Assembly: GCA_019429125.1 (NCBI GenBank) | Contig: JAHYJO010000001.1 | Location: 7,088 to 71,087 of the forward strand | DNA from: Nanobdellati archaeon | GTDB lineage: Archaea > EX4484-52 > GLR71 | Direction: 5' to 3' | Length of the DNA stretch: 64,000 nt | Shown here: positions 9,001 through 27,684 of the stretch, in pieces | How positions within the stretch are numbered: position 1 is the first letter of the stretch | How the letters are laid out: every line of letters begins with the position of its first letter | The notes under the pieces: model-generated | Database searches by the model: none | What the model was told of the DNA's origin: nothing | What the model saw: the letters and a program-made list of their open reading frames with translations, nothing else | Translations under genes and position numbers: made by a program

Positions 9001-12000
9001 ACGGAATATGATTTGTCTGTAAATTCAAGTTTGGTGCCTAACATAACAAATGTATACAGCCAGGGATATTTGAGAGGGGATTATATACCACTTCTTACAT
9101 CTGTAACAGATGATTGTGGTTCTGTTTCGAATGTTACACTATCATATGCTCTTTTGAACATGCCAAACCAGTATGTTTGTAGCAAACAAAGCAATGTGGG
9201 GTGGAATGAGAGTGATGGGGATTATAATTGCACTTGGGATTCTACAAACAAACCATATAAATGGTATAATGTTATTGCAACAGTTTCAAAAGAATTTTTT
9301 GTAACTAATATGACTTCAGGTAATGATAGGTTCTTTTTAGGTGTAACACCACAGCTTGATTCGTTAGCTGTAGCTCCTAAGATTGGTGGTTGGGGAGAAA
9401 ATCATCAGTTTAGTGTAAGGTTAACAAGTTTTGATCTTGCAACAAATAATGTATCATTGTGGAAAAGTTTTGATAATGTGTCTTGGGACCTTGTTAACTG
9501 GCAGACTGTTATTATGCCTATAGGCCAGTGGGTATATTTCAATGAAAGGTTCACATGTAATGATTACCTTACACCACCATCAGGTCTGAATTATTATAAG
9601 ATAATATCTAAAAATGTTTTCGGGTTCAGTACTGAAACGCCAGTATATAATTATACGCTTAATTATGATAATGTTACTTTGAGTATAACTCCTGCAAGCA
9701 ACGATACTGTTCGTCGACTGGGAGTGACAAATGCGTTATTTGAGGCAAGAATATATGATACTGACTATGGTATTTATCAGAATAATACAGATGCTAACAT
9801 ATGGGTCACAAAAGATGGTAGTGTATTTGATTATAATGAGTCCTGTTCATCTCTTGATGGTTATTGCAGAATAAATTATGACCCTCAATGTGATAGTGAT
9901 GCAGGAGTGCAGAAATGGAAGATAGAAGTGTATGATTTATGTTATCAGAATATCAATTCAACAAATGTCACAGTATCTGTAATTGGGCAACTGTACAGTA
10001 ATGTAGCCAGTCCAGAACAAAATGATATCCTTAACTTAAATACGACTATCAACTTAAATACAACTGTCTATGATGAGTGTGGTAATAATATAGTTGATGC
10101 ATCTGTTTATTGGTATAATAGTGTTCCTGTATCTATTGCTTCAGGATATGATACAACCTGGAATGTTCCATTAAGCTATACAAAAGGTCCAGAGAGTATA
10201 ATTACAAATTCAACTAGGCAATATTATGATAATGGTACAAATATGACTGATGTCTATGTGTATGGTTGGAGCATAATATCATCAATGTCACCACTTGACC
10301 TTTCAAGTTATCTTGCAGGATATGATGTGCCTGTACAATGTACTGTGACTGATGCCAATACTACTAGCAACCTTACGAATTATAATGTAAGCTTTTACAA
10401 AAATGATGTGTTCCAGGATTCAAATATGACCGATTCAAACGGGACTGCTGTATGGACTTGGGTTACTGATTTAGAACCTTATGGTTGGTATAACCTTAGT
10501 TGCATGATATCAAATGATGATACTTTGTATTATACTCCTGCAGTGGCTCAGATGAATACTACTGTTAGAGTGAACAGAACATTGATGATACAAAGTATAG
10601 TACTTTCTAATCCCGACATTTATCGGAATGATTCATTTGCACCTTATGATACAAACATAACTGTCAATATATATGATGCACTATTTGGGCCTGCAGATAA
10701 TGCAGATGTATGGTTCTATAATTCAACTGGATTTATAGACAATTGTACAACTGATGTGGCTGGCAATTGTTATATCAGTTATAATGCGCCTGATAATATT
10801 ACACCTCAAGGATATGCGGTCTATGTCAATTCAACAAAAGCTGGGCTTGAAGATTCAATAACTGACAATACAATAATAGGTGTATACGGTATATATTATA
10901 TCAACATTACGGAACCTGATAATGGTAGTTCTTGGAGTAAGGCAATAATATTAAACCTTTCATCGTATATTGAAAATGAGAATGGATATGTTGATACTGC
11001 AACTGTTAATTGGTATATTGATTCTGGATTTGTTGCAACTGGACAAAATACTACATCTCCACTTATTTCACAGTTGCCGGGACCTAAAATATTGCAATCA
11101 AATGCTACACGACCATATTATATTACGGGTACTGATAATATCTTATTGAATATAAATGGTCTTGTTGATGTCATGTGGTGGTATCCTCTTAACGGTTCCA
11201 AACAAGCATATCCTGGGTCTTTTGATGTCCAGTGTCTTGTGAAAGATAACACATCTGGTGTGTCGGTTGTAGGTTATGCTGTGGATTTCTGGTACTGGAA
11301 CGGTTCAGATTATGTTTATAATGGGACCTATACAACAAATGAATTAGGTATTGCTGGTTATACATGGTATCCTGAATCAAAAGGTGTTCTTGATTTCAAG
11401 TGTAATATAACAGATAATGCTACTGTGTTTTATTCGCCAAACATTGGTGACGATATTGCCACAATAATAGTTGAGGATATAAATCCACCTGTTATATCTA
11501 ATGTGAGCATAATTCTAAATAGTACACTTGAAGCAAATCTTAATTATACAAATATAACTGCTGTTGTGATAGATGATGTGTTTGTATATTCAGTTATTGC
11601 GAGCATTACTCTTCCTAACGGTACAATAGTTAACGAAACTATGAGTAATGTATTCAATGATACTTATCGTGTTGAATATTTACCCCCTGTCGGTGGAAAT
11701 TATTCAGTAGATATAGTTGCAAGTGATTCTCCACCTGAAAATAATACCAATATTGTGTATGCTGGAGATTTTTCAGTATGGGGTACGGCGGATATTATTG
11801 GGGAGAGGACAGATGAATATGTAGCATTTGGTATAACTCAAGTATCTGATGAATCATTTGTGTTGACTGTAAATGCAACAAATAATGGTCCTGCAACAGC
11901 TTATGATGTGTCAATAACAGTTTTAGAAGACCCTATCGGTACTGTGACTTATAATACAACAAATTATGAGTGTGGTAATTTGAGTGTAGGGGTAATGTGT

Positions 12001-15000
12001 TCAAGGGATTTCCTTGTGACAGTACCTTCAAAGACTGCTCCGCAACTTATAACGGTATACAGTACAATATGGTGGGATAATCCTGATAAGACACCTAATT
12101 CAACAGTTGGTATTACTTTAATTGATGTTGCATCAAATCCTGTAGTAGATATACTTGAGATATTTATACAAAATCAGACAAAACATGGAGAAACAACAAT
12201 AATAGGAACATTGACTGTAAGTTCAGCAGGAAATGATTATGTAGATAATATTGTATTATCTAAAGTAGGAATTATATTAGATCTTTCGTGTCCATTATGT
12301 AACTTGACAATGTCAAAACAAGTTGAAGAGACATTACCTGCCGGAGAATTTTTCACATCTGTAATATCAATAGATGTTCCATATGGTCAGAGTGCAGGGG
12401 ATTATTGGACATATATATCTGCTAAATCAGATAATGCAGCACAGGATTTGGTTATTGTTAATGCAACTGTACCACTTGATGTCACTTGGGAAAGAGAACC
12501 GTCCACCTTTGGAACGATTCTTGCTCTTGTAAATACAACTACTACTCAAATTGGTGTTATTTCTACTAAGAATAATGGTAATTCTGAACGAAATTTGATT
12601 GTTCAATCTGGTGGTAATGGTTCATTATTTATTACAAAAAGTCCAAACTCATCCTCATTGGGCATTGGTGCTTCAAGAAATGTAACTCTTAATTATTCTA
12701 TTCCTGCGCTAACAACGCAGGGTATGTATTATGTACAGATACACATAAGGGAATCATCAGCTAATCCATCTGATGCAATTACTGATTTCTGGCTCAATGT
12801 GACTGACTTACCTCCTGTAATATCTAATGTGTCTATCAAGCCTCGCGGGTATGAACCCGATGTAGGATATTCAAATATATCTGCTGTGGTGATAGATAAT
12901 GTTTTAGTCTCACATGTATGGTTGAATTCAACAAAGCCAAACGGTACAGATGAGATATATTATTTTACTTTGAATGGAAGTGATGCTTATCTTAATTACA
13001 GTGAGAATGAGACTGGAGTTCATAAGGTTGTTATATGTGCAAATGATTCTGCAAATCTTATCAGTTGCACTATGATTTATGATATTAGTGTTATGGTTAA
13101 TACAACAGTTGTTACAGAAACAAACATAACTAATACAACAATTTATGGTATCATGCTTGATACGGGACTTAATGTATCATTTAATTTCACAACACTTAAT
13201 GATGGGTATTCAAGAGCACTTGATGTAAATACATCTGTTTTGTATCCAGTTTTATGGAATGTGTCACCATCAGAGTTTAATATGGGTGACATAATTTTGA
13301 TGCCTTATCAAGGTGAAGCATTACTTTTAATACCCGCTGATGTTATTGGTGAGTATTATATTAATTTTACATCTAACTGGACTAATTATGACGGTTCAAA
13401 TGATACACTTATGACACCTATAAGGATTGTAATCGGGTCTAATCCTGCACTTAATGTAACTGATATGCCTGCGTCATTTGTGATTGAAAGCGGTAAAACT
13501 CTAAGTACTAATTTGACTTTGAAGTCAATTGGTAATGATATTGCAAAAAGTATAGCGTTTAATTGTACGGAGGGGGTTGTATGTTCTGAGTTTAATGTAT
13601 CTTTCAATCCACTAGTAATAGTAAATTTAACTAAAGGCAACAGTACGAATTTCACAATTAATATATCCGTTCCGCTTGGGTATTTAGCGGGGGTATATGA
13701 TGGTGTATTTACTGTATATGAATCAAAGACAAATTTATCTGTGAATATCACCGTTGTAATTCCTGCTAACTTGACATGGGAACATAATCCTGTCATAATC
13801 TCAAAAAATGTAATTGCAAATAGGACTGGTAATTTTGGTTCTGTCAGAGTGTCCAACATGGGCAATATACCTTTGACAGTTTCGGCAATATCTACAAATA
13901 CAACAATTTTTACAATAAATGAGAGTAGTATTAATTTGCCATTGGGAGATTACTATGATGCCATGATTAATTATAGTGCACCCGAAGTATTCAGCCTTGT
14001 CACATATTCAGCATATTTCAGGACAACTAATATAACAGCTTTACCTTCTGATAGGGAAACATTCTTGAATATAACTATATATCCATTGTATTTAGATATA
14101 ATTACTCCAACAACTGTGGTTCCTAAACTAAATGTCTCAAAAGGCAAAAATATAACTGCAATATTTAATCTTACTTATAGTCTTGTGCCTGTTTCTGAGA
14201 ATGTTACATGGCAGATAAATCTGACAAAGGATAGCACATCTTTTTCAGTAAATATTACACCTGAAAATATTAATTATTCAGCAATATCTGGTCTTTGGAC
14301 AATTAATTTCACCGCACCTGATATCCTTGCAGGAGTTGCTTATGACCTTGTTGCAATTGTATTTGATGAGATAAATAATATTGAGATAATTTCGGTTGAG
14401 AAAAAGGCAATAATTTATACAGATACAATTCCACCACTACTTTTTGTTGATTTATTTTCAAATATAATTAATGGTAGTGTTATACCAATTTATGTAAATA
14501 CAACAGACGTTGGTGGTATGGATTATGTGTCAGTTGAAATAACAACACCAAATGGTACTATTTTTGCATATAATGCAACTCTTTTAGATTCTGTTGGAAA
14601 TGATTATTTCTATAATCTTGACTTTATAGAAACATCAGTTTTGGGTGCTTATCCTGTAGCTATAAGTGCGTATGATCTTTCAAGTAATGTAAATACTACA
14701 AATGTAATATTCAATGCTTATCTACCTTCATATTTCAGAGGTTATTCTTATGATCTTGAAAGTGTGGATAATGAAACAGTAGTCTCTGCAGAATTCAAGT
14801 TGTATAAACATGATGAATCTGTATTGATGCATAATTTTTGGTCAGATAATGTGACTGGTCTTTATAATGAAAGTGTGTATGTCCGGTTATATGATGTCGT
14901 TGTTGACGTATTGAATTTGACTTTAACTTTCGATGATTTCAGTATGCCTCTTGGTGGAATTTTCAATCCATTGGTGTTTGGTGATATACCAATTGCACTT

Positions 15001-17355
15001 ATCGGTGCAGGACCTAAGAAAGCAGTATATATTGATAGTGCTATGAATTCAAATCCAAATATAGTATTTGATTATTCTCCATATGTTGATTTGATTGCAA
15101 GCGATATTGCGGTCTATAATTGTGATGATTGGGCTATAAAAACAGGATGTTTAAATCAATGGATAAGAAAGAATGTTACTGTTGATACTAATTTACGAAC
15201 TGTCACAATTGATACTATAAGTCCGACTGGTGCATATGCATTGGCACAATATATATGTGGGAATAAGATTTGTGAGGATGATTATGGCGAATCTAATTCA
15301 ATATGCCCAACTGATTGTAAGATAGATGTACCGTCATTGCCTCCTATGCCTGCACAACCAACATCAGGTGGTGGTAGTGGTTCTGGGACTGGTGCGGGTG
15401 AGGGACAAGGTCGTGAAACGGGTGCAGGTGCAGGAGGTATAGATAAGGACAGTTCAGATATAGATGGCAAAGGAGGAGAATTAGTTCCTATTGAGATAAA
15501 ATCTACACTACTTTACATAACTTTAGCTCCAGGTGAAAAATCAATACATTCAATTGAGATAAAAAATAATCAGGATAAGAAAGTAACATCACAGTTAAGT
15601 GTGGATGGACTTGTCTGGGACTTGATTCAGCTTGAGAAAACTGAGATAAAAGTGGATGAGAAATCAACTGAAAATGTAAAAATATCTGCATATGTATTGC
15701 CATCTACAATGCCAGGTATTTATACTGGTGATATAGTTGTTAAAACAGGGACTATGGTATATAGGACTCCTGTCACAGTAAAGGTTGAAATTAAAAAGGA
15801 AGCGCTTTTAGATGTCATAATTGAGACATTGTCAAGTGTGGTCAAGCCCGGTGAAGATGTAAAATTCATGGTTACTGTCAAGAATATGGGTGAGACTGAG
15901 ACTGTTGAAGACATAACACTTGAATATGTCATCAAGAGTCTTTCAAATAATACTATCATTACGACATATACCGAGACACTTGCAGTCAATAAATCATTAT
16001 CATTTGTCAAATCATTAAATATACCTAATAATACAAAAGAAGAACGGTATGTCATAACTTTAAATGCAAGATATGCAAATGCTGAAAAGTTTGCAACATC
16101 TTCTGACGTTGTTGATGTAAGCACACAACCATGGCCTATAGTCCTTCTTCTTAGATTGTTTAAGAGTTGGGTAACTTATGTCATATTATTAGTTGTATTG
16201 CCAATTCTTTATTTCGGACGAAAAGCATATCTATCATATCTCGACAAGAAAAAGAAGGGCGCGAGATATATATTCCCTATGGACTATTCAAAACTGCCAC
16301 AGAAAGGTGAAGAAAGTGTTAAGGTCGGTAAGATTGCAGAAACAGATATCAATGCATACATTAATATCAAGAACTTGACTATGCACTCAATTGCAGCAGG
16401 TGGTACTGGTTCTGGTAAGAGTGTAACTGCAATGTCAACGGCTGAAGAGTTATTAGACCTTGGCATCCCTGTTGTAGTATTTGACCCTACAGCACAGTGG
16501 AGTGGGTTTATGAGACCATGTAAAGATCCGCACATGCTTGAATTATATGCTAAGTATGGGCTTAAGCCTGAAAATGCAAAATCATATAAGACAAATATCA
16601 TTGTTGTTGAGAGCGCAGACAGCCTTACTGATGCAGAAATAGATATACGACAATATATGAAACCTGGTGAAATCACAGTATTTGTAATGAGCAAGTTGAG
16701 TTCATCAGAGCTTGATAAGTTTGTAAGAAGGACTATTAAGAGCATATTTAGCATACAGTGGCCTGAAGCGAAGACTTTGAGAGTTCTTATTGTGTATGAT
16801 GAGATGCACAGACTGCTACCTAAGTATGGCGGTAAGGGTGGATATCTTGAACTGGAACGTGGATGCCGTGAATTTAGGAAATGGGGTCTTGGTCTGTTTA
16901 TGATATCTCAGGTATTGGCGGATTTCAAGGGTGCTATAAAAGCTAATGTCGCAAATGAGATCCAATTAAGGACAAAGTATAATGGAGATATACAGCGTAT
17001 CAAACAAAGGTATGGTCCGGATTATGCTATGCGGGTGGCAAAACTTACTGTCGGTGCAGGGCTGATACAGAACCCTGAGTATAATGAAGGTAAACCATGG
17101 TTTATTCAATTCAGACCACTTTTGCATGATACTGGAAGATTAAGCAATGAAGAGCTTGATGTTTATATGGGTTTGAAAAAATCAATTGATGAGATTGCTT
17201 CAAAAGTTGCTAAGATGAAAGCAAAAGGTATGGATACATATGACATTGATATTGAAGTCAATATGGCACGTACTAAACTGCAACAGGGTGTGTTCAAGAT
17301 GGCTGAGACATATATACAGTCGCTTAAAGCAAGGTTGTCGTCAATGGCAGTATGA
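1..17355 (+). CDS. Giant repetitive cell-surface glycoprotein, 5'-truncated by the window edge. Extracellular region of more than 5,300 aa, C-terminal TM anchor, cytoplasmic HerA/FtsK-like ATPase domain.
   Basis: Uninterrupted frame-1 ORF from nt 1 (the track M at 106 is internal; upstream codons continue the repeat motif YAVGPQKWKYG) to TGA at 17353-17355. Very dense NxS/T sequons and paired Cys motifs (DDCGLV, WYNCT, DSCY). Modular repeats. C-terminal hydrophobic span followed by Walker A/B motifs. Confidence 0.85.
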   Translation, partial: YAVGPQKWKYGLLNNPAYNSTNSTEFYYNITTAPLVVMLESPIGGITFEKGVNNILLRGNVSDDCGLVKGANVEINIVKDETTYATCNPAGDENTGWYNCTIVNTTHNTWPVGLYNITMKADKKYYNDSEMLVVENAFRLVIRPILSNPTATSIQGGSVGGWGELWDFTVDISDPDGDSSNVSFWINLTGSWEFMDSVIWAQGNPTITFSGKTFSCADALDLGVKQYKFNVSDDYNYTSNITSTMTIEKDDVFVNPTATGGQSVDRNGTVTILLQTQIMDMDKAYAPVGSGVDGMTWVTVNGSDLSSYDGGYGLQTDASGYLNYNFDINCSYTTGQHAWKGGTFASVCYKDSISSTMYFDSLGKLYTDIELPVNGSNYGTGTQIIMRANVTSECVNEGLIDSEVKGFEFKSPSSSWYGCSPINEEEGLDTGWYNCTWDSTFKQPGNWTIRTNASNDTYYTAVNTWVDYFELLNNPPSYSDMNVTPDAGAWGTVYTFSVNFTDSDADTVDCDLYVTTDNGATWKLRNSTTLTSPAVCNLTVSDFDCGDIGNDNFFKFGLDDGYNTINTTNMSGPNITVDNIEIIYVYGNDKDVNRSYGILPLKVYVNDTTKGSFVSPNVPVYFNITTDGVAYNLEGSNVTVNGNSTYSFIPSCSYYEGEQTWYAEVNDSCYIPKNTTEYNLTVYGTLTNTLDIPNGVEYLPNNNITLRANVTSDCPAEVMNDTDVTFRYFRTGYSNTCTVENESTSYYNCTFNNTGMSPGYYDFEMNSSKSFYNTDSRVFSYVYGISSFWLETLPVLTTPTVSPGVGGWGETFYFTTNATDRDLDTMTVRLWLRKKPAGSWVQKNITTVQGINQTVNLSTRFPSGGDMGDWEFNFTVTADDSWDVYGTQNVSFTVEANDVRIEIISGNDSIVNRSSLPGNSNPNVTFGVRVFDDDLNALIPYSITTRFYVTKDGSNFTILATPQNETSEFYVTLNPDCSYGIGPQMWKASSVFSMNSWYKRINTSDQYFNITTVPLSTEISEPAGITTVRDMDNILLRANVTDECGLVVGASPVIVVERLTVPYFTCPTDGSLQYEGNGYYNCTVPAASMSGWPTGNYDVKIDSSKVYYNSSETNIKNNAFRLVTVPKVDNTVITSLSATGSSDFGWGEDWTFTVDVLDEDNDNVNVYLWANLTGNWELLDSTTCTNCGGSTHTIEFTGLKFLCTHIGNRDFKFNVSDDYSYTNETVGTFDIIKDDTVTYYGMVGDSSQIDREGNDVEIFSVRVRDIDFNAYVGTTIPNATGKIFVTTDGVSYDAGTQNQTDVSGYLYYTFNPDCNYLVGAQKWYGGPRGDSCYMDSDSSMFDTTITGQLKSSITNPAYSSSVLVGDIVNLNSSVFDECFVPVSGVTITHQAGPLSVDFEDITPVSDAGDGYYNSTWDTMFHQGGNWSFMLNASKINYYSNSTVYEEWLYLDNTPPVVENFTVSPTIEGWGHVYTYDAQMYDIQQDNITCDLYVSTDNGVSWVLKNSTFIETVSTLGVANCTLSLSNFDCSEIGTDNQYKFQIDDGTNVFNTSSISGPNITKDTVSIDYVFGNDSIVNRSGSQTTLFSARVLDSDKGSIPVMTGSSVTFWTTYDNVVYDLGYVISTNSTGYANYNFNPVCNPVKYEVGLQYWSAGVTDSCYSSINTSSNYTTIIYGSMDNQILLPLGTKFISGIDNVTIRSNVTSDCSVEETMNETLVNFTMTSLYTGTPYGCTTEVYNESTGYYNCTFETVGKEPREYNITMNATKEYYITNITTMTYLASVSSFRIENVPFMTAPVVSPGVGGWGETFFFTTNVTDADNDSMTVRLWLRKISGGSWVQKNITTVQGINQTVNLSTTFVSGNDIGDWEFNFTVTADDSWDVYGTENVSFIVEPNDVRIEIISGNDSIVNRSSLPGNSNPNVTFVVKIYDDDRNVLINIPIQTRFYVTKDGSNFVTLGDISNNSGYFFATLNPDCTYAVGPQMWKVASVFSGSSWYKLANSSNLNFNITTIPLATELSEPFGITRVRSVDDILLRANVTDECGLVSGASLEFFVDQSAIPYFTCPSDSTLNDENDGYYNCTIPAESTSGWSTGDYNINYTVSKVYYNSSDIIMENDAFRLVTVPQVSNPVITTLTSIGYSDFGWGEDWTFEVDVLDSDQDNVNVYLWVNLTGEWELLDSTVCTNCGTTQTISFGGHGFSCSNIGNRDFKFNVSDDYSYTNYTVGTFDIIKDDTITYYGGLGDLSQIDREGSDFETLTVQIFDADYNDYVGSSIPIATGKIFVTTDGVNYDIGTSNQTDASGYLYYMFNPDCSYLVGNQKWKGGSKGDACYVDSDSSMFDMTITGQLKSSITNPVYSSSVLVGDSINLNASIFDECLILVPGVTITHQAVSPSLEFEEILPVSDSGVGYYNSTFDTMFHQGGNWSFMINSSKVNYYSNSTLFSNWTYLNNTPPTVENFTVSPDEDGWGRVYSYEAQIFDTQMDNITCDLYVSTNGGAIWTLKNSTFIETVPTSGFANCILSLSNFDCSEIGTDNLYKFQIFDGTNKFNTSEISGPNLTKDTVSIDYVFGNDSIVNRSGSQTTLFSARVLDSDKGSIPVMTGSSVTFWTTYDNVNYNTGSVISTNSTGYATYQFNPTCSPVNYEVGPQYWKAGVTDSCYAQINFTQDNYTTTVMGDIINTIENPFYGTEYLRGENVTVRSISTPTIMDDCTASLLNIDNSIIFYNENGVANYSCITNEVGGGYYECIRNTTDMVARWYDTEMVSWETYYNNGTVLLQNHIFVKTAPNMTDETAITSVGGWGETFYFSVNVTDEDLDNVTLNLYIKNTASGPFGIWGAPKNSTILYSPQGEYAVLSWSDAPYCTIGTWEYKFEAIDTHGDTTFTDAHNFTIEKDDVEVLYSVGDGSYVWRNGSDSTTLTLDIVDSDRGNISVGTGTSARFWVTTNANDSSSWDLGKDTATLEGAIEYYFMNQFPDGGQKCDYTVGIQKWKGGTLNDICYKDQNSTEYDLSVNSSLVPNITNVYSQGYLRGDYIPLLTSVTDDCGSVSNVTLSYALLNMPNQYVCSKQSNVGWNESDGDYNCTWDSTNKPYKWYNVIATVSKEFFVTNMTSGNDRFFLGVTPQLDSLAVAPKIGGWGENHQFSVRLTSFDLATNNVSLWKSFDNVSWDLVNWQTVIMPIGQWVYFNERFTCNDYLTPPSGLNYYKIISKNVFGFSTETPVYNYTLNYDNVTLSITPASNDTVRRLGVTNALFEARIYDTDYGIYQNNTDANIWVTKDGSVFDYNESCSSLDGYCRINYDPQCDSDAGVQKWKIEVYDLCYQNINSTNVTVSVIGQLYSNVASPEQNDILNLNTTINLNTTVYDECGNNIVDASVYWYNSVPVSIASGYDTTWNVPLSYTKGPESIITNSTRQYYDNGTNMTDVYVYGWSIISSMSPLDLSSYLAGYDVPVQCTVTDANTTSNLTNYNVSFYKNDVFQDSNMTDSNGTAVWTWVTDLEPYGWYNLSCMISNDDTLYYTPAVAQMNTTVRVNRTLMIQSIVLSNPDIYRNDSFAPYDTNITVNIYDALFGPADNADVWFYNSTGFIDNCTTDVAGNCYISYNAPDNITPQGYAVYVNSTKAGLEDSITDNTIIGVYGIYYINITEPDNGSSWSKAIILNLSSYIENENGYVDTATVNWYIDSGFVATGQNTTSPLISQLPGPKILQSNATRPYYITGTDNILLNINGLVDVMWWYPLNGSKQAYPGSFDVQCLVKDNTSGVSVVGYAVDFWYWNGSDYVYNGTYTTNELGIAGYTWYPESKGVLDFKCNITDNATVFYSPNIGDDIATIIVEDINPPVISNVSIILNSTLEANLNYTNITAVVIDDVFVYSVIASITLPNGTIVNETMSNVFNDTYRVEYLPPVGGNYSVDIVASDSPPENNTNIVYAGDFSVWGTADIIGERTDEYVAFGITQVSDESFVLTVNATNNGPATAYDVSITVLEDPIGTVTYNTTNYECGNLSVGVMCSRDFLVTVPSKTAPQLITVYSTIWWDNPDKTPNSTVGITLIDVASNPVVDILEIFIQNQTKHGETTIIGTLTVSSAGNDYVDNIVLSKVGIILDLSCPLCNLTMSKQVEETLPAGEFFTSVISIDVPYGQSAGDYWTYISAKSDNAAQDLVIVNATVPLDVTWEREPSTFGTILALVNTTTTQIGVISTKNNGNSERNLIVQSGGNGSLFITKSPNSSSLGIGASRNVTLNYSIPALTTQGMYYVQIHIRESSANPSDAITDFWLNVTDLPPVISNVSIKPRGYEPDVGYSNISAVVIDNVLVSHVWLNSTKPNGTDEIYYFTLNGSDAYLNYSENETGVHKVVICANDSANLISCTMIYDISVMVNTTVVTETNITNTTIYGIMLDTGLNVSFNFTTLNDGYSRALDVNTSVLYPVLWNVSPSEFNMGDIILMPYQGEALLLIPADVIGEYYINFTSNWTNYDGSNDTLMTPIRIVIGSNPALNVTDMPASFVIESGKTLSTNLTLKSIGNDIAKSIAFNCTEGVVCSEFNVSFNPLVIVNLTKGNSTNFTINISVPLGYLAGVYDGVFTVYESKTNLSVNITVVIPANLTWEHNPVIISKNVIANRTGNFGSVRVSNMGNIPLTVSAISTNTTIFTINESSINLPLGDYYDAMINYSAPEVFSLVTYSAYFRTTNITALPSDRETFLNITIYPLYLDIITPTTVVPKLNVSKGKNITAIFNLTYSLVPVSENVTWQINLTKDSTSFSVNITPENINYSAISGLWTINFTAPDILAGVAYDLVAIVFDEINNIEIISVEKKAIIYTDTIPPLLFVDLFSNIINGSVIPIYVNTTDVGGMDYVSVEITTPNGTIFAYNATLLDSVGNDYFYNLDFIETSVLGAYPVAISAYDLSSNVNTTNVIFNAYLPSYFRGYSYDLESVDNETVVSAEFKLYKHDESVLMHNFWSDNVTGLYNESVYVRLYDVVVDVLNLTLTFDDFSMPLGGIFNPLVFGDIPIALIGAGPKKAVYIDSAMNSNPNIVFDYSPYVDLIASDIAVYNCDDWAIKTGCLNQWIRKNVTVDTNLRTVTIDTISPTGAYALAQYICGNKICEDDYGESNSICPTDCKIDVPSLPPMPAQPTSGGGSGSGTGAGEGQGRETGAGAGGIDKDSSDIDGKGGELVPIEIKSTLLYITLAPGEKSIHSIEIKNNQDKKVTSQLSVDGLVWDLIQLEKTEIKVDEKSTENVKISAYVLPSTMPGIYTGDIVVKTGTMVYRTPVTVKVEIKKEALLDVIIETLSSVVKPGEDVKFMVTVKNMGETETVEDITLEYVIKSLSNNTIITTYTETLAVNKSLSFVKSLNIPNNTKEERYVITLNARYANAEKFATSSDVVDVSTQPWPIVLLLRLFKSWVTYVILLVVLPILYFGRKAYLSYLDKKKKGARYIFPMDYSKLPQKGEESVKVGKIAETDINAYINIKNLTMHSIAAGGTGSGKSVTAMSTAEELLDLGIPVVVFDPTAQWSGFMRPCKDPHMLELYAKYGLKPENAKSYKTNIIVVESADSLTDAEIDIRQYMKPGEITVFVMSKLSSSELDKFVRRTIKSIFSIQWPEAKTLRVLIVYDEMHRLLPKYGGKGGYLELERGCREFRKWGLGLFMISQVLADFKGAIKANVANEIQLRTKYNGDIQRIKQRYGPDYAMRVAKLTVGAGLIQNPEYNEGKPWFIQFRPLLHDTGRLSNEELDVYMGLKKSIDEIASKVAKMKAKGMDTYDIDIEVNMARTKLQQGVFKMAETYIQSLKARLSSMAV
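4681..4845 (+). repeat. 165-nt tract nearly identical (1 mismatch) to 7669-7833, inside otherwise ~85-88% identical repeat units.
   Basis: Direct comparison. aaagatacggtgtctattgattatgt(t/a)ttcggtaatgattcaattgtcaacaggtctggtagtcagactactttattttctgcacgagttcttgattctgataagggaagtataccagtaatgaccggttcttcagtcactttctggacaacttatgataatgtg occurs at both sites. Confidence 0.85.
7669..7833 (+). repeat. Second copy of the near-identical 165-nt tract (partner of 4681-4845). The offset equals the super-repeat period of 2,988 nt.
   Basis: Same as above. Confidence 0.85.
15337..15480 (+). other. Pro/Gly/Ser/Thr-rich low-complexity linker (SLPPMPAQPTSGGGSGSGTGAGEGQGRETGAGAGG) between the repeat ectodomain and the membrane-proximal domains. 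It is preceded by a small Cys cluster (CGNKICEDDYGESNSICPTDC).
   Basis: Read from the translation. The antisense ORF at 15282-15470 is its shadow. Confidence 0.6.
16132..16215 (+). other. Predicted single transmembrane anchor of the giant protein (WPIVLLLRLFKSWVTYVILLVVLPILYF), followed by a basic stretch (GRKAYLSYLDKKKKGAR).
   Basis: 28-residue hydrophobic stretch followed by K/R-rich residues (positive-inside rule), placing the downstream ATPase in the cytoplasm. Confidence 0.6.
16380..17352 (+). other. C-terminal FtsK/HerA-superfamily (DUF87/VirB4/TraG-like) P-loop ATPase domain fused to the giant surface protein.
   Basis: Walker A AAGGTGSGKS (nt 16399-16422), then VVVFDPTAQW, Walker B LRVLIVYDEMHRLLP (DE at 16798-16803), then ERGCREFRKWGLGLFMISQ (RKxG...SQ arginine-finger region). 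Order and spacing are typical of the HerA/VirB4 clade. Confidence 0.7.
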
Positions 17356-17392: not shown

Positions 17393-19399
17393 ATGGCAGG
17401 TGATAATGTGACTAAGAAAAAAGGTAATGCTAAAGAAAGTGAATTTATGGGCATGAGCTTGGATGGTCTTCAGGATAAGAAAAAAGAGATTAAGGAATTT
17501 CTTGCATCTTTAGAAAATGATTATCGTAATGCAACTATTTCTGAAAAAAGTTATAAGCATACAAAAGAGGTCAATCTTAAAATGATGGAAGATTTAAAAC
17601 AACAGCTTGCCGATTTTGGCATAACTGATTCTGATGATGATGTCATTACAACTCCTGCAGGTGACGACAAAACAACTATTGGGACTTCTGAGGTAGCTGT
17701 GTCTGCGAGTCCTGTCAGTAATGGGGGGAGCGTTTCTGGTAATAGTGATGTAGCTGATAATGTTTCAGTTGATAATGTGGCAGCTAATAATGTGCCTCTT
17801 AGTTCTGAACCTTATTCACAGAGTACACAGAGTGCTGGAGCTTCAGAGGGATTGAATAGTTCAGATGAATCTGAACATATAATCAATAAAGATACCAAAG
17901 GGTTGTCTTTAGTAGATAAGTTAAAGCAGTATGTGGAATTATCAAATGCGGTCGCTGCTAAAAATACCAACAAATCCGGAAATGTATCCAGCAATCAGCC
18001 AGTTCAATCTGTTGCAGAGACTACACCTCAAGTTAGTCAGGTTCCAGTTGCGCCCGTGCAGAATGTTGAGTTATTGATGCAAAAGTTTTCTGAAAAAGTT
18101 AATGTGGATTTGGAACGTATCAAAGCCAATCTTGATTCCTTTAAAGAGATGCGTGCGTCAACAGATGAACATATGCAGACAGTTACAGAAGGGCTTACCG
18201 AACTTAGGACTACAGTATTTCAGAGAGAGGCGGGAATAAAAGAGCAAGAGATGCGGTTTACAAGAGTTAAAGAGCTTGTGGATGATATTGAACCTGAAAA
18301 GATAAATAAAGAGTTTATGAAACGTGATAAGTTTACATCTGAGATGGAGATACGTATTGAGAAACTTGAAGTCAAGATTGAGGATATCATAAAAACTATA
18401 AAGCATACAGATGGTCTGTTGAAAAGTATGGGAAATCTTGAAAATATAGCAAATATAGACCATAAGATTGCAAATAAAATGGAACATGTAAGTGAGACTG
18501 AAAAATCTATGGTTCATCTTTCTTCAAAAATGGAAAAGATGTTTATGAGTCTAAATGAAAAACTTGAAAATTTTGATGTTTATGAAGCAAGACAGGATAA
18601 TATGAATGAGATAATGAATGATATGCTTAAGAATGTGGATCAGCTTGGTGTCAAATTTGAGAGTTATATCGATAAGAAAGATATGTTCAAAGTTAAAAAC
18701 GATATGGATTCTTTGTCTGAAAAAATTGAGATGATGATGGGTATATTGAAAAAAGCAGTGCCGTTTGCAGAAGCTGAAATTCCAAAAGAACTTCAGGAAC
18801 TTGAAGATCAACGGGAGGATATAGAGAGTCTTCTGTCTACACTTGCGCAGGAACATAAGAAGAAACAGATATCTGATAAGGAGTATATGAATATCAAGAA
18901 GAAAAATGATGTAGCTCTGGATAATATTAAAGTAGAAATAAACAAAATTATGAAAAAAATGATTAAAAACGAATCAAGTAGCAAGTCTTTGTCATCAAAA
19001 CAGACTAAAGATGCAAAAGATAAAGTAGGAGATTCTGCTGTTGAAAAAGTAGGAGATGCTGAAATGTCTGAAACGGTTGAGATTGAGGTTGGTGTAGATA
19101 AAGGTATTACTGATTCAGATGAAATAAAAATTAATGATGATTTAATAGAGGTGGAGGGGAGTCCTAAAGATAATGGTCTTGAGAAAGCAGATGAAAAAGA
19201 ATCGTTCGAGTCTAATAAGTCTGAATCAGTGCAAGATGCTGTCAAGCCTGTTGATAATGGTGCGGGCAAGGTTAAAGAAAATATGAGTGAAAAGATTGAT
19301 GTCAATGATCCTCTTATTATTGAACTTGAGGAATCACTTGCGCAAGGTTTAATATCTCAAGAGACATATGATAAAACAAAAAAATTGATAATAGGTTGA
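17393..19399 (+). CDS. 668-aa cytoplasmic coiled-coil protein, acidic, with an S/T/N-rich low-complexity segment. No TM. Tightly linked between the two giant surface-protein genes.
   Basis: ATG 38 nt after the giant ORF stop. Long E/K-rich heptad-like regions. Stop lies 5 nt before the next gene start. Confidence 0.7.
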   Translation: MAGDNVTKKKGNAKESEFMGMSLDGLQDKKKEIKEFLASLENDYRNATISEKSYKHTKEVNLKMMEDLKQQLADFGITDSDDDVITTPAGDDKTTIGTSEVAVSASPVSNGGSVSGNSDVADNVSVDNVAANNVPLSSEPYSQSTQSAGASEGLNSSDESEHIINKDTKGLSLVDKLKQYVELSNAVAAKNTNKSGNVSSNQPVQSVAETTPQVSQVPVAPVQNVELLMQKFSEKVNVDLERIKANLDSFKEMRASTDEHMQTVTEGLTELRTTVFQREAGIKEQEMRFTRVKELVDDIEPEKINKEFMKRDKFTSEMEIRIEKLEVKIEDIIKTIKHTDGLLKSMGNLENIANIDHKIANKMEHVSETEKSMVHLSSKMEKMFMSLNEKLENFDVYEARQDNMNEIMNDMLKNVDQLGVKFESYIDKKDMFKVKNDMDSLSEKIEMMMGILKKAVPFAEAEIPKELQELEDQREDIESLLSTLAQEHKKKQISDKEYMNIKKKNDVALDNIKVEINKIMKKMIKNESSSKSLSSKQTKDAKDKVGDSAVEKVGDAEMSETVEIEVGVDKGITDSDEIKINDDLIEVEGSPKDNGLEKADEKESFESNKSESVQDAVKPVDNGAGKVKENMSEKIDVNDPLIIELEESLAQGLISQETYDKTKKLIIG

Positions 19400-19404
19400 T
19401 TTGA

Positions 19405-22400
19405 TTGTCGGTAAAAGCTAACAAACAGTGGCATATTTATGTAGTAATTGCAGTGTTAGCTTTAATGTTTTTTTCAAATTCAGTAATGGCATCTTTTGAT
19501 TCTTATTGGTTTGATACGGATTGGCATTTCAGGACGAATTTTACAATAAATAATACGGATTATGATAGGGACTATTGGCCTGTTGAACTTGATATAAATT
19601 TTACAGATATAATGCTTCAATCGGGTAAAAATGGCACATTTGATAATGAGTCAATTAGGGTTATTGAACATGATTTTAGTGGGGCTGTATTGTTTGAACA
19701 TCCTTTTCAGTTTGATAATAAAATTGGGTTTAATGTTAGTACGAATGCGGTAGGAACTATTGTTTTTCTTTTGAATGGGACAACAAATGCTAATCAGATA
19801 AGATATATTTATGTATATTTTGATACTGTCGAAAATACTGTCAAGGTGCCTGTTTCATATTCAACAAATCTTGTGTATTCTTGGGACGGTGAGGAAGCGC
19901 ATGTCAATAATAGTCTGTTTAATATGAAGATTGATACACTTAGGGGTGAAAATACATCAGGTATATATGATATTTATTCGAATAACATAATATTTTCTAC
20001 TTCTTCTACAAATAAAACAAAGGAATATACACAATTTTCAAATGGGACAGATATTTTTTCATTTGATTTTAGAAATAATGCTACATTTTCTGGTGGAAAT
20101 ATAAAAAGAGTTATGGAGCAGACAGGTGTTGAGACTTTATGGAATAATCCTGGTTTAGTTACTGGTTTTGGGTTTATGAAAAAAAGGTATATATTTTATG
20201 AAAATACATCATGGATAAAGATTGAACAAAATTATACAAATGTTGGTGTGTCATCAGTGACTCGAAATTCCACAAGTGCGGGAGCGTTATCTGTGAATGA
20301 TATTTCAACAGATGAATTTAATGGACCATTTAGGTTTGGAGATATGACTAATCCAATGTCTTGGTATGGCGCATCAGATGGTAGTCGTGGTCTTGGTCTG
20401 ATAAATTTTAATTATAGTTCTAATGCAAATTTTTATGTAAAAAATGATACAATTTTAGATCGTATGGGAATTCATCTTGACCCTGTTGTAATTATACCTA
20501 ATGAATCTGTAACTAATACAGTCATAATGCAGTTTAACGGAATTAATTATAATCAGGCAATGCTTGAATCACTTAGGAATCAGATGGCATATCCACCAAT
20601 AATTGTTCTGGAAAATAATCAATTCATTCCTGTGACTATTGTTCCAAAAATAAATTATTCAATCTATAATAGAAATGATTCAGTGCTTATAATTGCAAAT
20701 GTAACTTCAGATAAGTATAATGTTATCACATCAATGAATGCTACAGTTGATATAGGTACTGCATCTACATCTGATGATATTTTGATTAGCCTCTACGATG
20801 ATGGGTTATCTTTACATGGAGATGAGGTTGCTTATGATGGCATTTTTTCTAATATCTTTAATCCCTCTGAGAACAGTATAATAGGGGTATGGGACGTTAC
20901 TGTTCGTGCATTTGACTCTTTTGATGTAGTTCTCAATGAAGTGAATGTGTCGTTTAATGTAAGTGATATGTATAATGTGTCAATAAACATATCAAACCCG
21001 TCAGGTCTCGTTGATAGGGTTATATATGTGATTATAACTGTTCTGAATATAAGGGATGAATATATAGGTGGTGTATCTTTCAATTGTACTTATGGTGCTG
21101 GATTGCTGACAAATATAACAGATTATGATAACGGTACATATATACTTAATTTCACTGCACCGTCAATAACTGGTAATTATATTCTTGGTTGTAATGGTAC
21201 TAAGTTCAATAATATGGGGAATGACTCACAGTTTTTCAATACTGAAACGAGTGAGACAACAATTGCACTTGCGGTATCTCCACAGAATTATACTTCAGAT
21301 AATATTTCTCTATTAGTAGGTGATTATTTTGAAATAAGTGTGAATGCAACAGATGTTGGAGGGGCTAATGCAAAATATGTAAACATATCGTTGTCACTAC
21401 CTGTTAATTTAACTGCTAATTCTACTTTTGAATCTTGTGGTGATGTTTTTATGAATTTATCATGTGTTAAGGATTTCAATATAAGTATAATTAATGGTAC
21501 TGTTTCTGGAAATTATACTATAAATGTAAGTGCTACATGGTTGAACCCAAATCTTCTTACTAATTCCACTAATATTTCATTTATAACGTATGTCTATTCA
21601 AATCCTGTAATTGATATTTTGGGTGGCGGTTTAACAGGGGTTGTACCTGATGGTAAAAATGTAACATTGGGTAGTTTTAATGTGGATTCAATCGGTAATA
21701 GTGATCTTACAAACATAACATTTAATGTATCTGGTATTTCTGATTTTATTGTAATATTTAGTCCCAAAAATATATCATCATTATCTTTTGGGAGTTCACA
21801 GCCAGTCTCTGTTGAAGTTATAGTGCCACAGGATTATGTGTCGGGTAATTATTCAGGCATAATAAATATTAGTTCTGATAATGGTGGATGGAAAACTGTA
21901 GAATTGAACTTGACTGTGCCGGGAACAACTATAATATCATTACATAAAACTCCAGATAATTATACCTCTTCAATAATCTCTTTGTATTCTGGGGATTCAT
22001 TTGATGTGGATGCAATCATGACTAATGATGGTATTTCAGATGCAAAGGATGTAAATATTACATTATCTATGCCTCAGAATCTTAGTGCTAATTCAACATT
22101 TGAGCAATGTGGGCGTGTAAATGATAGTGGTTATTGTACAGAACAGTTTAACATAACAATTAGTGCGTTTACAGTTCCTGGAAATTATACTTTTAACATG
22201 ACATCAACATGGGTCAATCCTGATTTATCAACAGATTCTGTCTTATTGAATTTTACCGTTCAGGTAGTATCTAATCCAATTATTGATGTTATAGGGAACA
22301 TTTCAACCGAACTGCCTGACAATTCATTTGTTGCTGCTGGAAATTTTACTATATATTCAATAGGTAATTATAACCTTACAAACATAACATTTGATGTTAT

Positions 22401-25756: not shown

Positions 25757-26791
25757 TTGTGGATTATTATGTTGTGGAGTCAGATGAGGTTAAGATATTT
25801 TAAAAAACAATTCTGCTTGGGCAGTCTTATTATATATGTTAGTTTTATGGTATGTTTATTCATCTTTACTAATCCAATTTATGCAAAAGAACTTCAGGTT
25901 GGTGTGTCTCCTTTAATGCTTGATCTTGGAACTGTGAAAAAAGGAGAAAGTGTTGTGGGGTCATTTTTTATTGTGACGTCATCACAAGATGATATTATTG
26001 TGAAATTAAAATCATCACGTTCTAATTTTGATTTCTTTAAAAAACCTATAAATATAGATATTGTTAATTATGTGTCTGAAGAAGATAGTTCCGGATGGGT
26101 TTATTTTCCTGAGAATCCATATGTTCTCAAATCTACAGAGTATGTGTTAAATACCAAAGGCGGAACAATATCTGATTGGAAAAATGTTAATTTTGTGTTG
26201 AATGTCCCTGAGGATGCTGAGTCATGCTATCATGCATTTAAGATTGAACCTACACCTTATACAACAAAAGAAGAGGCTAGTTCTGTAAGTATTGTTGCAA
26301 TGGTAACGATTACTGTGAAATTTCAGGTTGCTGGTGGATGTGAGGTCAATGGAAATATATTGGATGTCATGCAGGATACTTCAAGTAAATATATTGATTT
26401 AGGTGTATATTTTAAGAATACAGGTAATGCAACGTTTTCAGCGTATAGTCCTGACGTGATGATATTTTATGAGAATGGCACATTGCTTGATAAGCAACGT
26501 TCGGGATATGCTTATTTTACTCCTGGAGATATTGGTGTGTTGAATGCACGGTTTGATCCAAAAAAGATTGTTCCTGGTAATTATATTGTAAATACTACAG
26601 TATTATATGGTGCTAATACAACATCAAAACAAGTGCCACTTACTATTGAAAGATCAGTGGTTGCAAAAATATCGACAGTAGTTTCAAAGACACCTGATGG
26701 TACTGATAATACTTTTTGGATATTGCTACTTGCAATAATTCTGATAATTGTTGGCGCCTATAAATTCTATAAGGTCGAAGATAAAAGATAA
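25757..26791 (+). CDS. Exported protein (344 aa) with an N-terminal signal anchor and a C-terminal TM (FWILLLAIILIIVGAYKFY). Hypothetical surface protein.
   Basis: ORF with hydrophobic N-terminus, NxS/T sequons and a C-terminal hydrophobic helix followed by a basic tail. Confidence 0.6.
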   Translation: MWIIMLWSQMRLRYFKKQFCLGSLIIYVSFMVCLFIFTNPIYAKELQVGVSPLMLDLGTVKKGESVVGSFFIVTSSQDDIIVKLKSSRSNFDFFKKPINIDIVNYVSEEDSSGWVYFPENPYVLKSTEYVLNTKGGTISDWKNVNFVLNVPEDAESCYHAFKIEPTPYTTKEEASSVSIVAMVTITVKFQVAGGCEVNGNILDVMQDTSSKYIDLGVYFKNTGNATFSAYSPDVMIFYENGTLLDKQRSGYAYFTPGDIGVLNARFDPKKIVPGNYIVNTTVLYGANTTSKQVPLTIERSVVAKISTVVSKTPDGTDNTFWILLLAIILIIVGAYKFYKVEDKR

Positions 26792-26799
26792 ATGCTAAT

Positions 26800-26890
26800 A
26801 GATGTTAATAGATGATAATCTAGAATAATTGATGATAATTGATGATAATTGATGATAATTGATGATAATTGATGATAATTGATGATATAT
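26800..26890. repeat. 10-bp tandem repeat: (gatgataatt) x5 perfect at 26831-26880, plus degenerate flanking copies, about 9 units in all.
   Basis: Directly visible. Starts about 10 nt after the stop of the 25757-26791 gene. Non-coding. Confidence 0.9.
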
Positions 26891-27676: not shown

Positions 27677-27684
27677 TATATAAG
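27677..27684 (+). promoter_or_regulatory. Candidate archaeal TATA box (tatataag) about 32-39 nt upstream of the ATG at 27716. This implies a leaderless or very short-leader transcript.
   Basis: TATA-like octamer at appropriate spacing. Inference only. Confidence 0.35.

Follow-up and report, generated by a model that had tools for sequence, protein, structure and literature searches.

The gene at positions 17393 to 19399 (+ strand) of the 64,000-nucleotide stretch of DNA analyzed here (the window) codes for a 668-aa protein (the target), soluble and all-helical, that belongs to a conserved three-gene arrangement, between a surface protein ending in an ATPase and a second surface protein whose cytoplasmic tail carries the same ~50-aa helical hairpin as the target itself. 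We see an even chance that the target forms the middle part, soluble and cytoplasmic, of a three-gene DPANN module, in which it would act as a sub-membrane scaffold or adaptor coupling the ATPase to the hairpin-tailed partner.

The target gene and its family

The ORF, which opens with an ATG, had been proposed from the letters of the DNA, and it was confirmed as a real gene: 16 close homologues, 766 family representatives and a core without indels across those close homologues place it beyond a chance reading frame. Translation may instead start at GTG 17408, giving a protein of 663 aa. This is the start of the NCBI call for the gene (P0002), homologues begin at the position aligned with it, and a Shine-Dalgarno-like motif, GGTGAT, lies ahead of it at 17399-17404. 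Upstream, the giant ORF stops at TGA 17353-17355, leaving a gap of 37 nt before the target ATG (counted as 38 in the sequence-only reading), while the next ORF starts at TTG 19405, 5 nt beyond the target stop codon, as had been read. An AGGT..GA motif lies within the 3' end of the target gene, ahead of TTG 19405, and together with the 5-nt gap it was counted toward translational coupling of the target and partner genes.

A profile search with the target core returned 766 cluster representatives at E ≤ 1e-3, 161 of them at E ≤ 1e-30, and every member that could be placed taxonomically was from DPANN archaea, except for a few contigs binned as Heimdallarchaeota. The target family is a large, unnamed one, with no Pfam or NCBIfam model. 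Sequence searches gave no Pfam, NCBIfam or PDB match above threshold for the whole protein, and a viral fold library gave no significant match. In the PDB, the core (A2, A3) and hairpin (A6) profiles matched nothing but designed coiled coils, prefoldin, and fusion or attachment stalks of viruses, all at E ≥ 0.007.

Domain architecture of the target protein

The target has no hydrophobic segment. Its highest Kyte-Doolittle 19-residue mean was 0.79, compared with 2.07 to 2.83 for the predicted TM and signal peptide segments of the neighboring proteins (one weak segment scored 1.83), which agrees with the earlier statement that the protein has neither. AlphaFold2 (AF2) predicted ~380 helical residues, close to the ~400 aa of coiled coil estimated beforehand, with helix-turn-helix elements at aa 23-46/51-74, 465-489/495-532 and 640-650/656-667 (pLDDT 82-97).

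The N-terminal hairpin module (17453..17614, +; aa ~21-74; helices 23-46 and 51-74; motif ISEKSYKHTK; pLDDT 82-86) is followed by a first tether (17633..18046, +; aa 81-218) that is predicted to be disordered, with a pLDDT below 50, and that varies in length and sequence between homologues. The composition of aa 81-222 is 17% S, 14% V, 9% A and 9% N. Within the tether lies a conserved island, K176-L177-K178 (nt ~17903-17935), that was invariant in the homologue alignment.

The conserved helical core (18047..18973, +; aa 219-527) consists of four long helices (222-298, 301-347, 349-425 and 429-455), the conserved loop VPFAEAEIP and the mid hairpin module (18785..18970, +; aa 465-526; motif ISDKEYMNIK), the second helix of which is delimited in the module as 495-526 and which reached a pLDDT of 95-97 in the AF2 model of the core. 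Residues 223-520 are helical, with 14% E and 13% K. The core showed zero indels among 15 close homologues and 2.6% gaps among 75 family members, and its AF2 model, made from the 75-sequence alignment, had a pLDDT of 85.9. The monomer models of the target had low pTM values (0.21 and 0.32), which leaves the helix packing uncertain. A generic coiled coil was set aside as a description of the target, given that its 309-aa helical core is indel-free among close homologues and defines a large family.

Behind the core lies a second disordered tether (18974..19297, +; aa 528-635), of mixed charge and rich in K, E, S and D, whose length differs between homologues; aa 521-635 contain 16.5% K, 14% E, 13% S and 11% D, with a net charge of -10. 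The protein ends in a C-terminal SHOCT-like hairpin (19298..19399, +; aa 636-668; PLIIELEESLAQGLISQETYDKTKKLIIG; pLDDT 92-93). The segment picture drawn from the sequence thus stands with regard to the helical stretch and the disordered segment, but it had overlooked the N- and C-terminal hairpins, and what it called an acidic tail is a mixed-charge disordered linker ending in a conserved 30-aa hairpin.

The upstream giant ATPase gene

The upstream gene (1..17355, +) encodes a giant single-pass surface protein with a huge ectodomain and SPEARE-like architecture. Since the frame is open from base 1 of the window, the ORF is truncated and the protein has at least 5784 aa. It carries NPCBM_assoc and MG2 domains near the membrane, one TM segment (nt 16138-16194; aa 5345-5363 of the ORF) and a C-terminal cytoplasmic ATPase domain (16216..17355, +), in which a HerA/FtsK-superfamily (DUF87) P-loop domain is followed by a ~70-aa helical end. 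The ATPase domain has a GTGSGKS motif and matched Pfam DUF87 (E = 9e-11) and HerA_C (E = 1e-6) as well as HerA in the PDB (8wiv; E = 2.8e-8); its NCBIfam matches to HerA (1e-11) and CedD (1e-10) were both far below the family cut-offs.

Like the upstream gene product, the SPEARE proteins of Nanohaloarchaeota combine a huge adhesion-domain ectodomain, one C-terminal-proximal TM segment, a cytoplasmic P-loop ATPase of VirB4/TraG/HerA type and, last, a helical stretch. The giant protein has a very long adhesion-type ectodomain, a single C-terminal-proximal TM segment and a cytoplasmic P-loop NTPase, and its putative assignment to the SPEARE type is by architecture, as described in PMC6642349 and PMC10266531. 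The intracellular part of SPEARE proteins is their most conserved part, and relatives have been reported in Aenigmarchaeota, Woesearchaeota and Micrarchaeota (Hamm et al. 2019, PMC6642349). The loci differ, however, in that the gene next to SPEARE in cultivated nanohaloarchaea is a second VirB4/TraG ATPase (PMC10266531), and the two SPEARE papers (PMC6642349, PMC10266531) describe no coiled-coil partner gene, no hairpin-tailed second surface protein and no minimal 723-aa version. Nor did we find the partner coiled-coil gene described in the literature on DPANN VirB4, HerA, DUF87, giant or coiled-coil proteins.

Gene order across loci

Gene order was compared in 21 distinct loci with an upstream flank, the window included, with identity to the target from ~80% down to ~25%. 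A gene ending in an ATPase (TM plus HerA/DUF87) was found directly upstream of the target homologue in 21/21 loci, and the linkage extended to distant members (Jingweiarchaeum and a P0162-like subfamily). Orthologous loci lacking the gene, which the sequence-only reading had singled out as the observation to look for, did not occur in this set. The upstream ATPase domains matched across loci with E values from 1e-57 to 1e-254, at 61-94% identity, in proteins of 723 to 14,617 aa. The distance from the ATPase gene to the target homologue ranged from -33 to +385 nt, with overlapping start and stop codons in several loci.

A second single-pass surface protein was encoded immediately after the target homologue or within 6 kb of it in 15 of the 21 loci, and the tail hairpin was present in 14 of these 15 proteins, the remaining one being cut by the contig end. 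In 4/21 loci the contig ended before any second surface protein, and the contig of L013 ended inside the target gene. In L027 and L028, 2-6 kb separated the second surface protein from the target homologue, and L024 had none next to it; this lack of constant adjacency was counted against the scaffold/adaptor explanation. L024 is also the only locus with T2SSE/T2SSF genes nearby, 4-8 kb from the target homologue. The minimal version of the module (L025) consists of a 723-aa ATPase protein, a 527-aa coiled-coil protein and a 334-aa partner, with ectodomains of only ~300 and ~200 aa, but it has lost neither the ATPase nor the coiled-coil protein nor the tail hairpin.

A hairpin shared by the target and its surface partner

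In the window, the partner gene (19405..25326, +) encodes a surface protein of 1973 aa with a signal peptide (aa 11-29), an ectodomain of ~1830 aa, a TM segment (aa 1863-1881; nt 24991-25047) and a lysine-rich cytoplasmic tail of ~90 aa. Its homologues have 1942-1988 aa in most loci, with extremes of 334 aa (L025) and 1428 aa (L026). A SHOCT-like hairpin of ~50 aa occurs at the N terminus of the target, at the end of the target core and as the cytoplasmic tail of the partner (25141..25320, +; aa ~1913-1972; LLERESKDGTINKDAYDELKNINDKKL).

An HMM built solely from the mid hairpin of the target family, family-wide, matched the N-terminal hairpin of the target (E = 6.9e-13) and the partner tail in 11/11 loci (E = 1.5e-8 in the window, 7e-10 to 6e-4 elsewhere), and its best unrelated match had an E value of 0.23. 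The match to the C-terminal hairpin was weak (E = 9e-3 for the target, 4e-5 to 7e-3 for homologues). The A6 HMM likewise matched the N-terminal hairpin (E = 6e-23) and recovered partner tails outside its training set (4e-8 in L028, 4e-5 in L025 and 4e-3 in L026), while an HMM of the C-terminal motif built from close homologues only did not detect the other hairpins. An alignment of 22 hairpins spans 62 columns and is free of internal gaps; padding was needed only at the C-terminal ends of the shorter tail sequences. The C-terminal and tail copies keep the turn glycine, whereas another residue takes its place in the N-terminal and mid copies. A search of six-frame translations of the window and 28 locus records, 321 kaa in total, found the module in no protein other than the target and the partner.

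With regard to known domains, the C-terminal 41 aa of the target gave a Pfam SHOCT match (E = 0.016; 15.3 bits) below the cut-off of 27, and the N-terminal and mid hairpins gave no SHOCT match in Pfam. Matches to SHOCT (best E = 1.3e-11) and SHOCT_2 (best E = 6.1e-8) were each obtained for 6 of 75 family members, with SHOCT matched by their terminal hairpins, and it is through these relatives that a putative kinship of the window protein with SHOCT is supported. Like SHOCT (PF09851) and SHOCT_2 (PF20612), the hairpins have two short amphipathic helices, a G-x-I-[ST] turn and no indels, and, like SHOCT-like domains generally, they are often terminal and often beside membrane-associated proteins. 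The copies at the N terminus, in mid-protein and in the tail differ from SHOCT in their greater length (~50 aa) and in an extra conserved stretch, N-x-x-K-L-x-x-I. No function is established for SHOCT; a role as inner-leaflet anchors and assemblers of membrane-associated complexes has been proposed for SHOCT-like bi-helical domains (PMC11237479), and the sole published experimental test of SHOCT as an oligomerization domain was negative (PMC3581485).

These results support in part the earlier suggestion that the target is a scaffold or regulator acting on both neighbors. Its premise of gene linkage was borne out, and its link to the downstream tail gains a concrete basis, because the same hairpin occurs in the target and in the tail and in nothing else searched. 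No hairpin was detected in the giant ATPase protein itself with the mid-hairpin and A6 HMMs, which was counted against the scaffold/adaptor explanation: a possible direct contact between target and ATPase is suggested by gene order alone. The pairing of the ATPase and coiled-coil genes is the strictest invariant of the loci, stricter than the link to the second surface protein, and, like the overlapping start and stop codons, it speaks for a different role, in which the target would be dedicated to regulating the ATPase or serving as its stator and would not act as a scaffold. The long helices would then bind the hexamer and switch or brace it, like peripheral stalks or inhibitory coiled coils, and the hairpins would merely retain the target at the membrane, a function that fits the proposed inner-leaflet anchoring by SHOCT-like domains (PMC11237479). 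No contact surface was identified, however, and the same hairpin in the second surface protein is left unexplained, and we consider such a dedicated regulator unlikely.

Location of the target protein

We infer that the target is cytoplasmic from its lack of a signal peptide and TM segment and from the inside topology of both the partner tail and the ATPase. The expectation that the target core would be conserved like the ATPase was rejected: core identity was 54/80/37%, which is the rate of the ectodomains, versus 78/94/64% for the cytoplasmic ATPase. Conservation thus gives no support for an intracellular location, and the ectodomain-like rate could instead point to a target that the neighboring HerA/FtsK-type ATPase exports, be it as cargo or as building material for the outside, where it could form a fiber or a host-contact structure. 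The C-terminal hairpin would in that case be the recognition signal, by analogy with type VII helical-hairpin substrates or type IV C-terminal signals. Export would be in keeping with the combination of a missing signal peptide and close gene linkage to an FtsK-HerA superfamily membrane ATPase, with the conserved terminal peptide behind a long disordered region, and with the proposal that SPEARE proteins are secretion 'straws' (PMC10266531). The hairpin is, however, not confined to the C terminus of the target but recurs at its N terminus and mid-protein, and the copy in the partner follows the TM segment and a lysine-rich stretch on the cytoplasmic side, which places the binding partner of the module inside the cell. 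Furthermore, the target had no WXG100, LXG or other Pfam/NCBIfam match, and among the conserved trio we noted no polytopic membrane protein that could form a channel. Export therefore appears quite improbable to us.

Comparison with other coiled-coil proteins

CdvA of Sulfolobales (PDB 9s9g) was the top fold match of the target in two programs, with a score not separated from those of generic helical bundles, and the N-terminal hairpin had a sub-threshold match to the Pfam CdvA coiled coil (E = 0.0039). In both proteins a flexible linker joins a helical coiled-coil domain, which has three helices in CdvA, to a conserved terminal peptide that serves for docking in CdvA and may do so in the target; the coiled-coil domain of CdvA polymerizes head to tail (PMC12818579). 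The target differs from CdvA in having no PRC domain, no sequence similarity and a different gene context. Membership in CdvA was not upheld in three PDB profile searches. The N terminus is a helical hairpin plus a disordered region and not a PRC barrel, and the window ORFs that were scanned gave no ESCRT-III/Vps4 family match and no CdvB or CdvC genes. Some relatives are labeled by JGI as an SMC-like 'chromosome segregation ATPase', a label rejected for the target on finding no Walker A motif in the homologues and no SMC_N or AAA match in Pfam. A general cytoskeletal, cell-division or chromosome-segregation protein of the CdvA-like or SMC-like kind, for which the position in the locus would be incidental, is a highly improbable identity for the target.

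Other DPANN coiled-coil proteins, named CCPs, are found near type IV pilus loci and have been proposed to function in cell-cell interaction (Hamm et al. 2024, PMC11291902). The target resembles them as a DPANN-specific coiled coil and in that CCPs show an HHpred resemblance to reovirus sigma-1 (6GAO), to which the target family profile had weak matches (E = 0.78 and 3.3). The T2SSE/T2SSF genes near the homologue in L024 are a further parallel. CCPs were selected for having type IV pilus genes within ten genes, whereas a scan of the window ORFs revealed no pilus genes.

DISCUSSION

In the scaffold/adaptor model that we favor, the first protein is a single-pass surface protein whose ectodomain measures ~300 to >14,000 aa and whose cytoplasmic C terminus is an ATPase of HerA/FtsK type, the second, the target, a rigid ~310-aa bundle of long antiparallel helices with two disordered tethers of 110-140 aa, and the third another single-pass surface protein with a short cytoplasmic tail ending in the ~50-aa hairpin. 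The helical core of the target would most likely self-associate beneath the membrane, and the hairpins may be docking elements that fasten this assembly to the third protein's tail, the inner side of the membrane or both. The assembly would thereby organize the hexameric ATPase of the first protein or hold it beside its partner.

The layout proposed here, with a self-associating structured core, long flexible tethers and short conserved end pieces for docking on membrane partners, resembles that of FtsZ, with its C-terminal peptide, and of the archaellum, where rings of ArlX and ArlCDE surround the hexameric motor ATPase ArlI. The target differs from these proteins in having no sequence or Pfam relation to them, no TM segment (ArlX has one) and no GTPase domain (FtsZ has one).

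A broader and more tentative possibility, which we consider less likely than not, is that the ATPase and the coiled-coil protein form, together with the hairpin-tailed partner, the conserved cytoplasm-facing core of an unrecognized, DPANN-wide envelope machine for host contact or intercellular transfer, with outer parts of anywhere between a few hundred and >14,000 residues. A sub-membrane ring or lattice of the coiled-coil protein might then assemble the machine, the ~50-aa hairpin might serve as a docking code, and a ParA/MinD-type ATPase might position the machine in some lineages.

All cultivated DPANN archaea require direct contact with a host cell, and giant proteins of the SPEARE type are the leading candidates for making it. 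Our results show such a giant gene to belong to a conserved module of three genes, in which the constant features all face the cytoplasm. The minimal version, with its 723-aa ATPase protein and 334-aa partner, offers a small, tractable set of proteins with a specific ~50-aa candidate docking module, and the SHOCT-like hairpin, which is poorly understood, gains a concrete pair of proteins for binding studies. For the uncharacterized family of 766 representatives, gene context now provides a functional hypothesis: the target probably serves as inner scaffold within an uncharacterized cell-surface machine.

Position of the coiled-coil gene and architecture of its neighbors

The coiled-coil protein gene (NCBI locus tag K0B07_00010) lies in the MAG of a DPANN archaeon with a GC content of ~34%. 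ORF calling placed it at 17393-19399 on the plus strand, encoding 668 aa, with 37 nt between the TGA of the preceding giant ORF and its start, and 5 nt between its end and a downstream ORF of 1973 aa. These calls reproduced the ORF, gene order, and downstream gap of the sequence-only reading, with the upstream gap corrected from 38 to 37 nt. Translation may instead begin at GTG 17408, giving 663 aa, since this is the NCBI call, close homologues start at the aligned position, and GGTGAT is found just 5′ of it. The protein had been described as lacking a TM segment and signal peptide, and its highest Kyte-Doolittle 19-residue mean of 0.79 confirmed that there is no hydrophobic segment; predicted TM or signal-peptide segments in the neighboring proteins reached 2.07 to 2.83, plus one weak segment at 1.83. 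An antisense ORF of 165 aa within the gene (18808-19305, minus strand) is most likely a by-product of sense-strand codon composition and not a gene.

The reading frame of the giant ORF already runs open at the first base of the window, so the ORF is truncated, with a length of 5784 aa or more; bases 1-105 are open in frame, and the 5749 aa given in the ORF list, counted from GTG 106, cover only part of it. The ending of the coiled-coil gene's locus tag (_00010) suggests that the contig itself starts inside the giant gene. The giant protein has a single TM segment at aa 5345-5363; behind it lies a HerA/DUF87 P-loop ATPase domain of 379 aa with a helical end, which we infer to be cytoplasmic. 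A single TM segment followed by a cytoplasmic ATPase with a helical end is the published architecture of SPEARE, the giant nanohaloarchaeal surface proteins (PMC6642349, PMC10266531), and we assign the locus to the SPEARE-type giant surface ATPase systems. In the downstream partner (19405-25326, plus strand), a signal peptide is followed by an ectodomain of ~1830 aa, which a single TM segment separates from a ~90-aa tail rich in lysine.

A large DPANN family invariantly linked to the ATPase gene

When the profile of the protein's helical core was searched against 1.84 billion cluster representatives, 766 proteins matched at E<=1e-3 and 161 at E<=1e-30, with the full core covered in most. Named members came from Aenigmatarchaeota, Jingweiarchaeum (Nanoarchaeia), Norongarragalinales, and MAGs labelled Nanohaloarchaea, and a few family contigs were binned as Heimdallarchaeota. 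All were annotated as hypothetical or with generic coiled-coil labels, e.g., "chromosome segregation ATPase", and sequence searches of Pfam, NCBIfam, and PDB returned no match for the window protein. The profile matches indicate a real family, distinct from generic coiled coil. The Heimdallarchaeota-binned members, all on short contigs (locus record L019, JAEOTG010000200.1, which also has the ATPase gene, and proteins P0186 and P0189), represent either mis-binned DPANN contigs or presence of the module outside DPANN.

We fetched 28 locus records carrying homologues (L001-L028; 23 distinct), giving, with the window included, 21 distinct loci with upstream flank. The placement directly after an ATPase-ending gene, first noted in the window, recurred in all 21, with the same ATPase domain (E 1e-57 to 1e-254) and intergenic gaps of -33 to +385 nt. 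The coiled-coil protein is thus a member of a large unnamed DPANN family that invariantly accompanies the giant surface ATPase. This linkage speaks against a cytoskeletal or division role unrelated to the module, a reading we regard as very improbable; that the protein is purely a regulator or stator of the ATPase is a stronger alternative that fits the present data too, though it is less likely than the scaffold model below. The ATPase-ending protein ranged from 723 aa (L025) to 14,617 aa. The latter, a gene call upstream of homologue P0014 (L001 1-9957; GCA_040960625.1, JBFOMW010000281.1) of which the last 3,318 aa were read, far exceeds the 9,409 aa of the largest protein described in cultivated archaea (PMC10266531).

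The partner gene was adjacent to the homologue in 13 loci. Its product has 1942-1988 aa in most of these; shorter ones occur in L023 (1712 aa), L026 (1428 aa), and L025 (334 aa). In L027 and L028 the gene lay 2-6 kb further downstream, and L024 had no partner gene next to the homologue; four further loci reached the contig edge first, and L013 ended within the coiled-coil gene. In L027 (11833-17771), a 1962-aa partner is encoded several genes after the coiled-coil gene, with PAS, HisKA/HATPase, and response-regulator genes among those in between; partner adjacency is thus not obligatory.

In a subfamily resembling homologue P0162 (L025 10001-11584; L026 10001-11563), the protein has no N-terminal hairpin, and its C-terminal extension, helical and ~190 aa long, is a different one; these genes nonetheless lie directly 3′ of the ATPase gene.

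Seven more plus-strand genes follow in the window (25757-36405), encoding proteins of 344, 185, 272, 943, 839, 260, and 454 aa with predicted hydrophobic (signal-peptide or TM) segments; the 943- and 839-aa proteins have Ig-like or CarboxypepD_reg matches. L002 and L007 show genes of similar size and order 3′ of the partner gene; a more extensive surface-protein cluster may therefore be common to close relatives. A-type ATP synthase genes are scattered in the window on the minus strand (D, B, A, and C at 43134-47845; E at 50382-50933; I at 56201-57991), and an ATP-synt_D gene a few kb 3′ of the module in three other loci (L001 20703-21317, L003 21429-22001, L005 19732-20349) makes the wider neighborhood seem conserved. 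In all 2-kb bins of the window (1-64000), the plus strand has more G than C, and the cumulative GC skew climbs steadily, even at ~36.8-58 kb despite many minus-strand genes there.

Anatomy of the protein and a hairpin shared with the partner

Alignment of 15 close homologues together with AlphaFold2 resolved five parts: an N-terminal helix-turn-helix (aa 23-74), a variable, disordered S/V/A/N- or P-rich tether (aa 81-218), a helical core of 309 aa (aa 219-527), a variable mixed-charge tether (aa 528-635), and a C-terminal helix-turn-helix (aa 640-667). The composition described from the sequence alone held on segment analysis, except that the "acidic tail" proved to be a linker of mixed charge that ends in a conserved hairpin; the conserved N-terminal hairpin is an addition. 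The core had no indels in any close homologue and only 2.6% gaps over 75 distant members. With the 75-sequence alignment, AlphaFold2 modelled it at pLDDT 85.9 as four helices (77, 47, 77, and 27 residues) that lead through a conserved VPFAEAEIP loop to a final hairpin; with a pTM of 0.32, the model leaves helix packing unestablished. The idea that the core is conserved like the ATPase, which would have supported the scaffold model below, was dropped, as its identity (54/80/37%) is similar to that of the ectodomains, against 78/94/64% for the ATPase. Within the first tether, an island at aa 171-181 (window 17903-17935), with K176, L177, and K178 invariant and S172 and Q179 nearly so, may be a short linear docking motif.

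In the 18,450 aa of window ORFs, four occurrences of the motif I-[STN]-x3-[YF]-x3-K were counted, three of them in the coiled-coil protein and the fourth in the partner tail. Since the motif was picked after viewing the sequences, a formal test was made with an HMM built from the mid hairpin (end of the core) of 75 family members alone, searched against 1476 six-frame segments. It recovered the N-terminal hairpin of every homologue searched (window E 6.9e-13), weakly matched the C-terminal one, and matched the partner's cytoplasmic tail in 11/11 loci (window E 1.5e-8; range 7e-10 to 6e-4), with the top unrelated match at E 0.23. Matches of a second HMM, from 22 hairpins, were confined to the coiled-coil and partner proteins across 321 kaa (the window and all 28 records), including tails outside the training set (L028 4e-8, L025 4e-5, L026 4e-3). 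The ATPase protein had no hairpin in these searches. Together, the HMM results indicate that the coiled-coil protein and the second surface protein share a specific docking-type hairpin.

The C-terminal copy is SHOCT-like (E 0.016, under the Pfam cut-off), and relatives match SHOCT at up to E 1.3e-11 and SHOCT_2 at up to E 6.1e-8. We know of no proven function for SHOCT. Its discoverers' oligomerization test was negative (PMC3581485), and a later comparative study proposed inner-leaflet anchoring and sub-membrane complex assembly (PMC11237479).

A putative sub-membrane scaffold

The module's constants are the ATPase domain, the coiled-coil protein, and the tail hairpin, while ectodomain sizes vary ~fifty-fold. 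The ATPase domain and the tail hairpin probably lie on the cytoplasmic side, and the coiled-coil protein has no export signal. That it is an exported substrate or fibre is improbable, as the same hairpin is found on the partner's inside tail. With its rigid helical core, two long tethers, and docking-type hairpins, the protein has the build expected of a sub-membrane scaffold or adaptor, the model we favor. In this model, the core would self-associate, the hairpins would tie it to the partner tail, the membrane, or both, and the tied assembly would sit next to the ATPase hexamer. The scaffold or regulator role first proposed is partly supported, with the invariant ATPase-gene linkage and the hairpin common to the protein and the partner tail as additions.

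Literature searched on SPEARE and DPANN giant ATPases described neither a coiled-coil partner gene nor the hairpin. The "CCP" coiled-coil proteins of DPANN, which may or may not belong to the same family, lie near pilus loci (Hamm et al. 2024; PMC11291902), whereas no pilus genes were found in the window.

In four distant loci, a ParA/MinD-type ATPase gene (CbiA, ParA, and AAA_31 matches) sits after the module (L023 16584-17294, L025 12597-13352, L026 16072-16839, L028 11806-12588), hinting at spatial positioning of the apparatus; none lies beside the module in the window. The minimal module (L025 7830-12597) consists of a 723-aa ATPase protein (signal peptide, ~300-aa ectodomain, TM, ATPase), a 527-aa coiled-coil protein, and a 334-aa partner (signal peptide, ~200-aa ectodomain, TM, hairpin tail), and would offer a convenient system for experiments.
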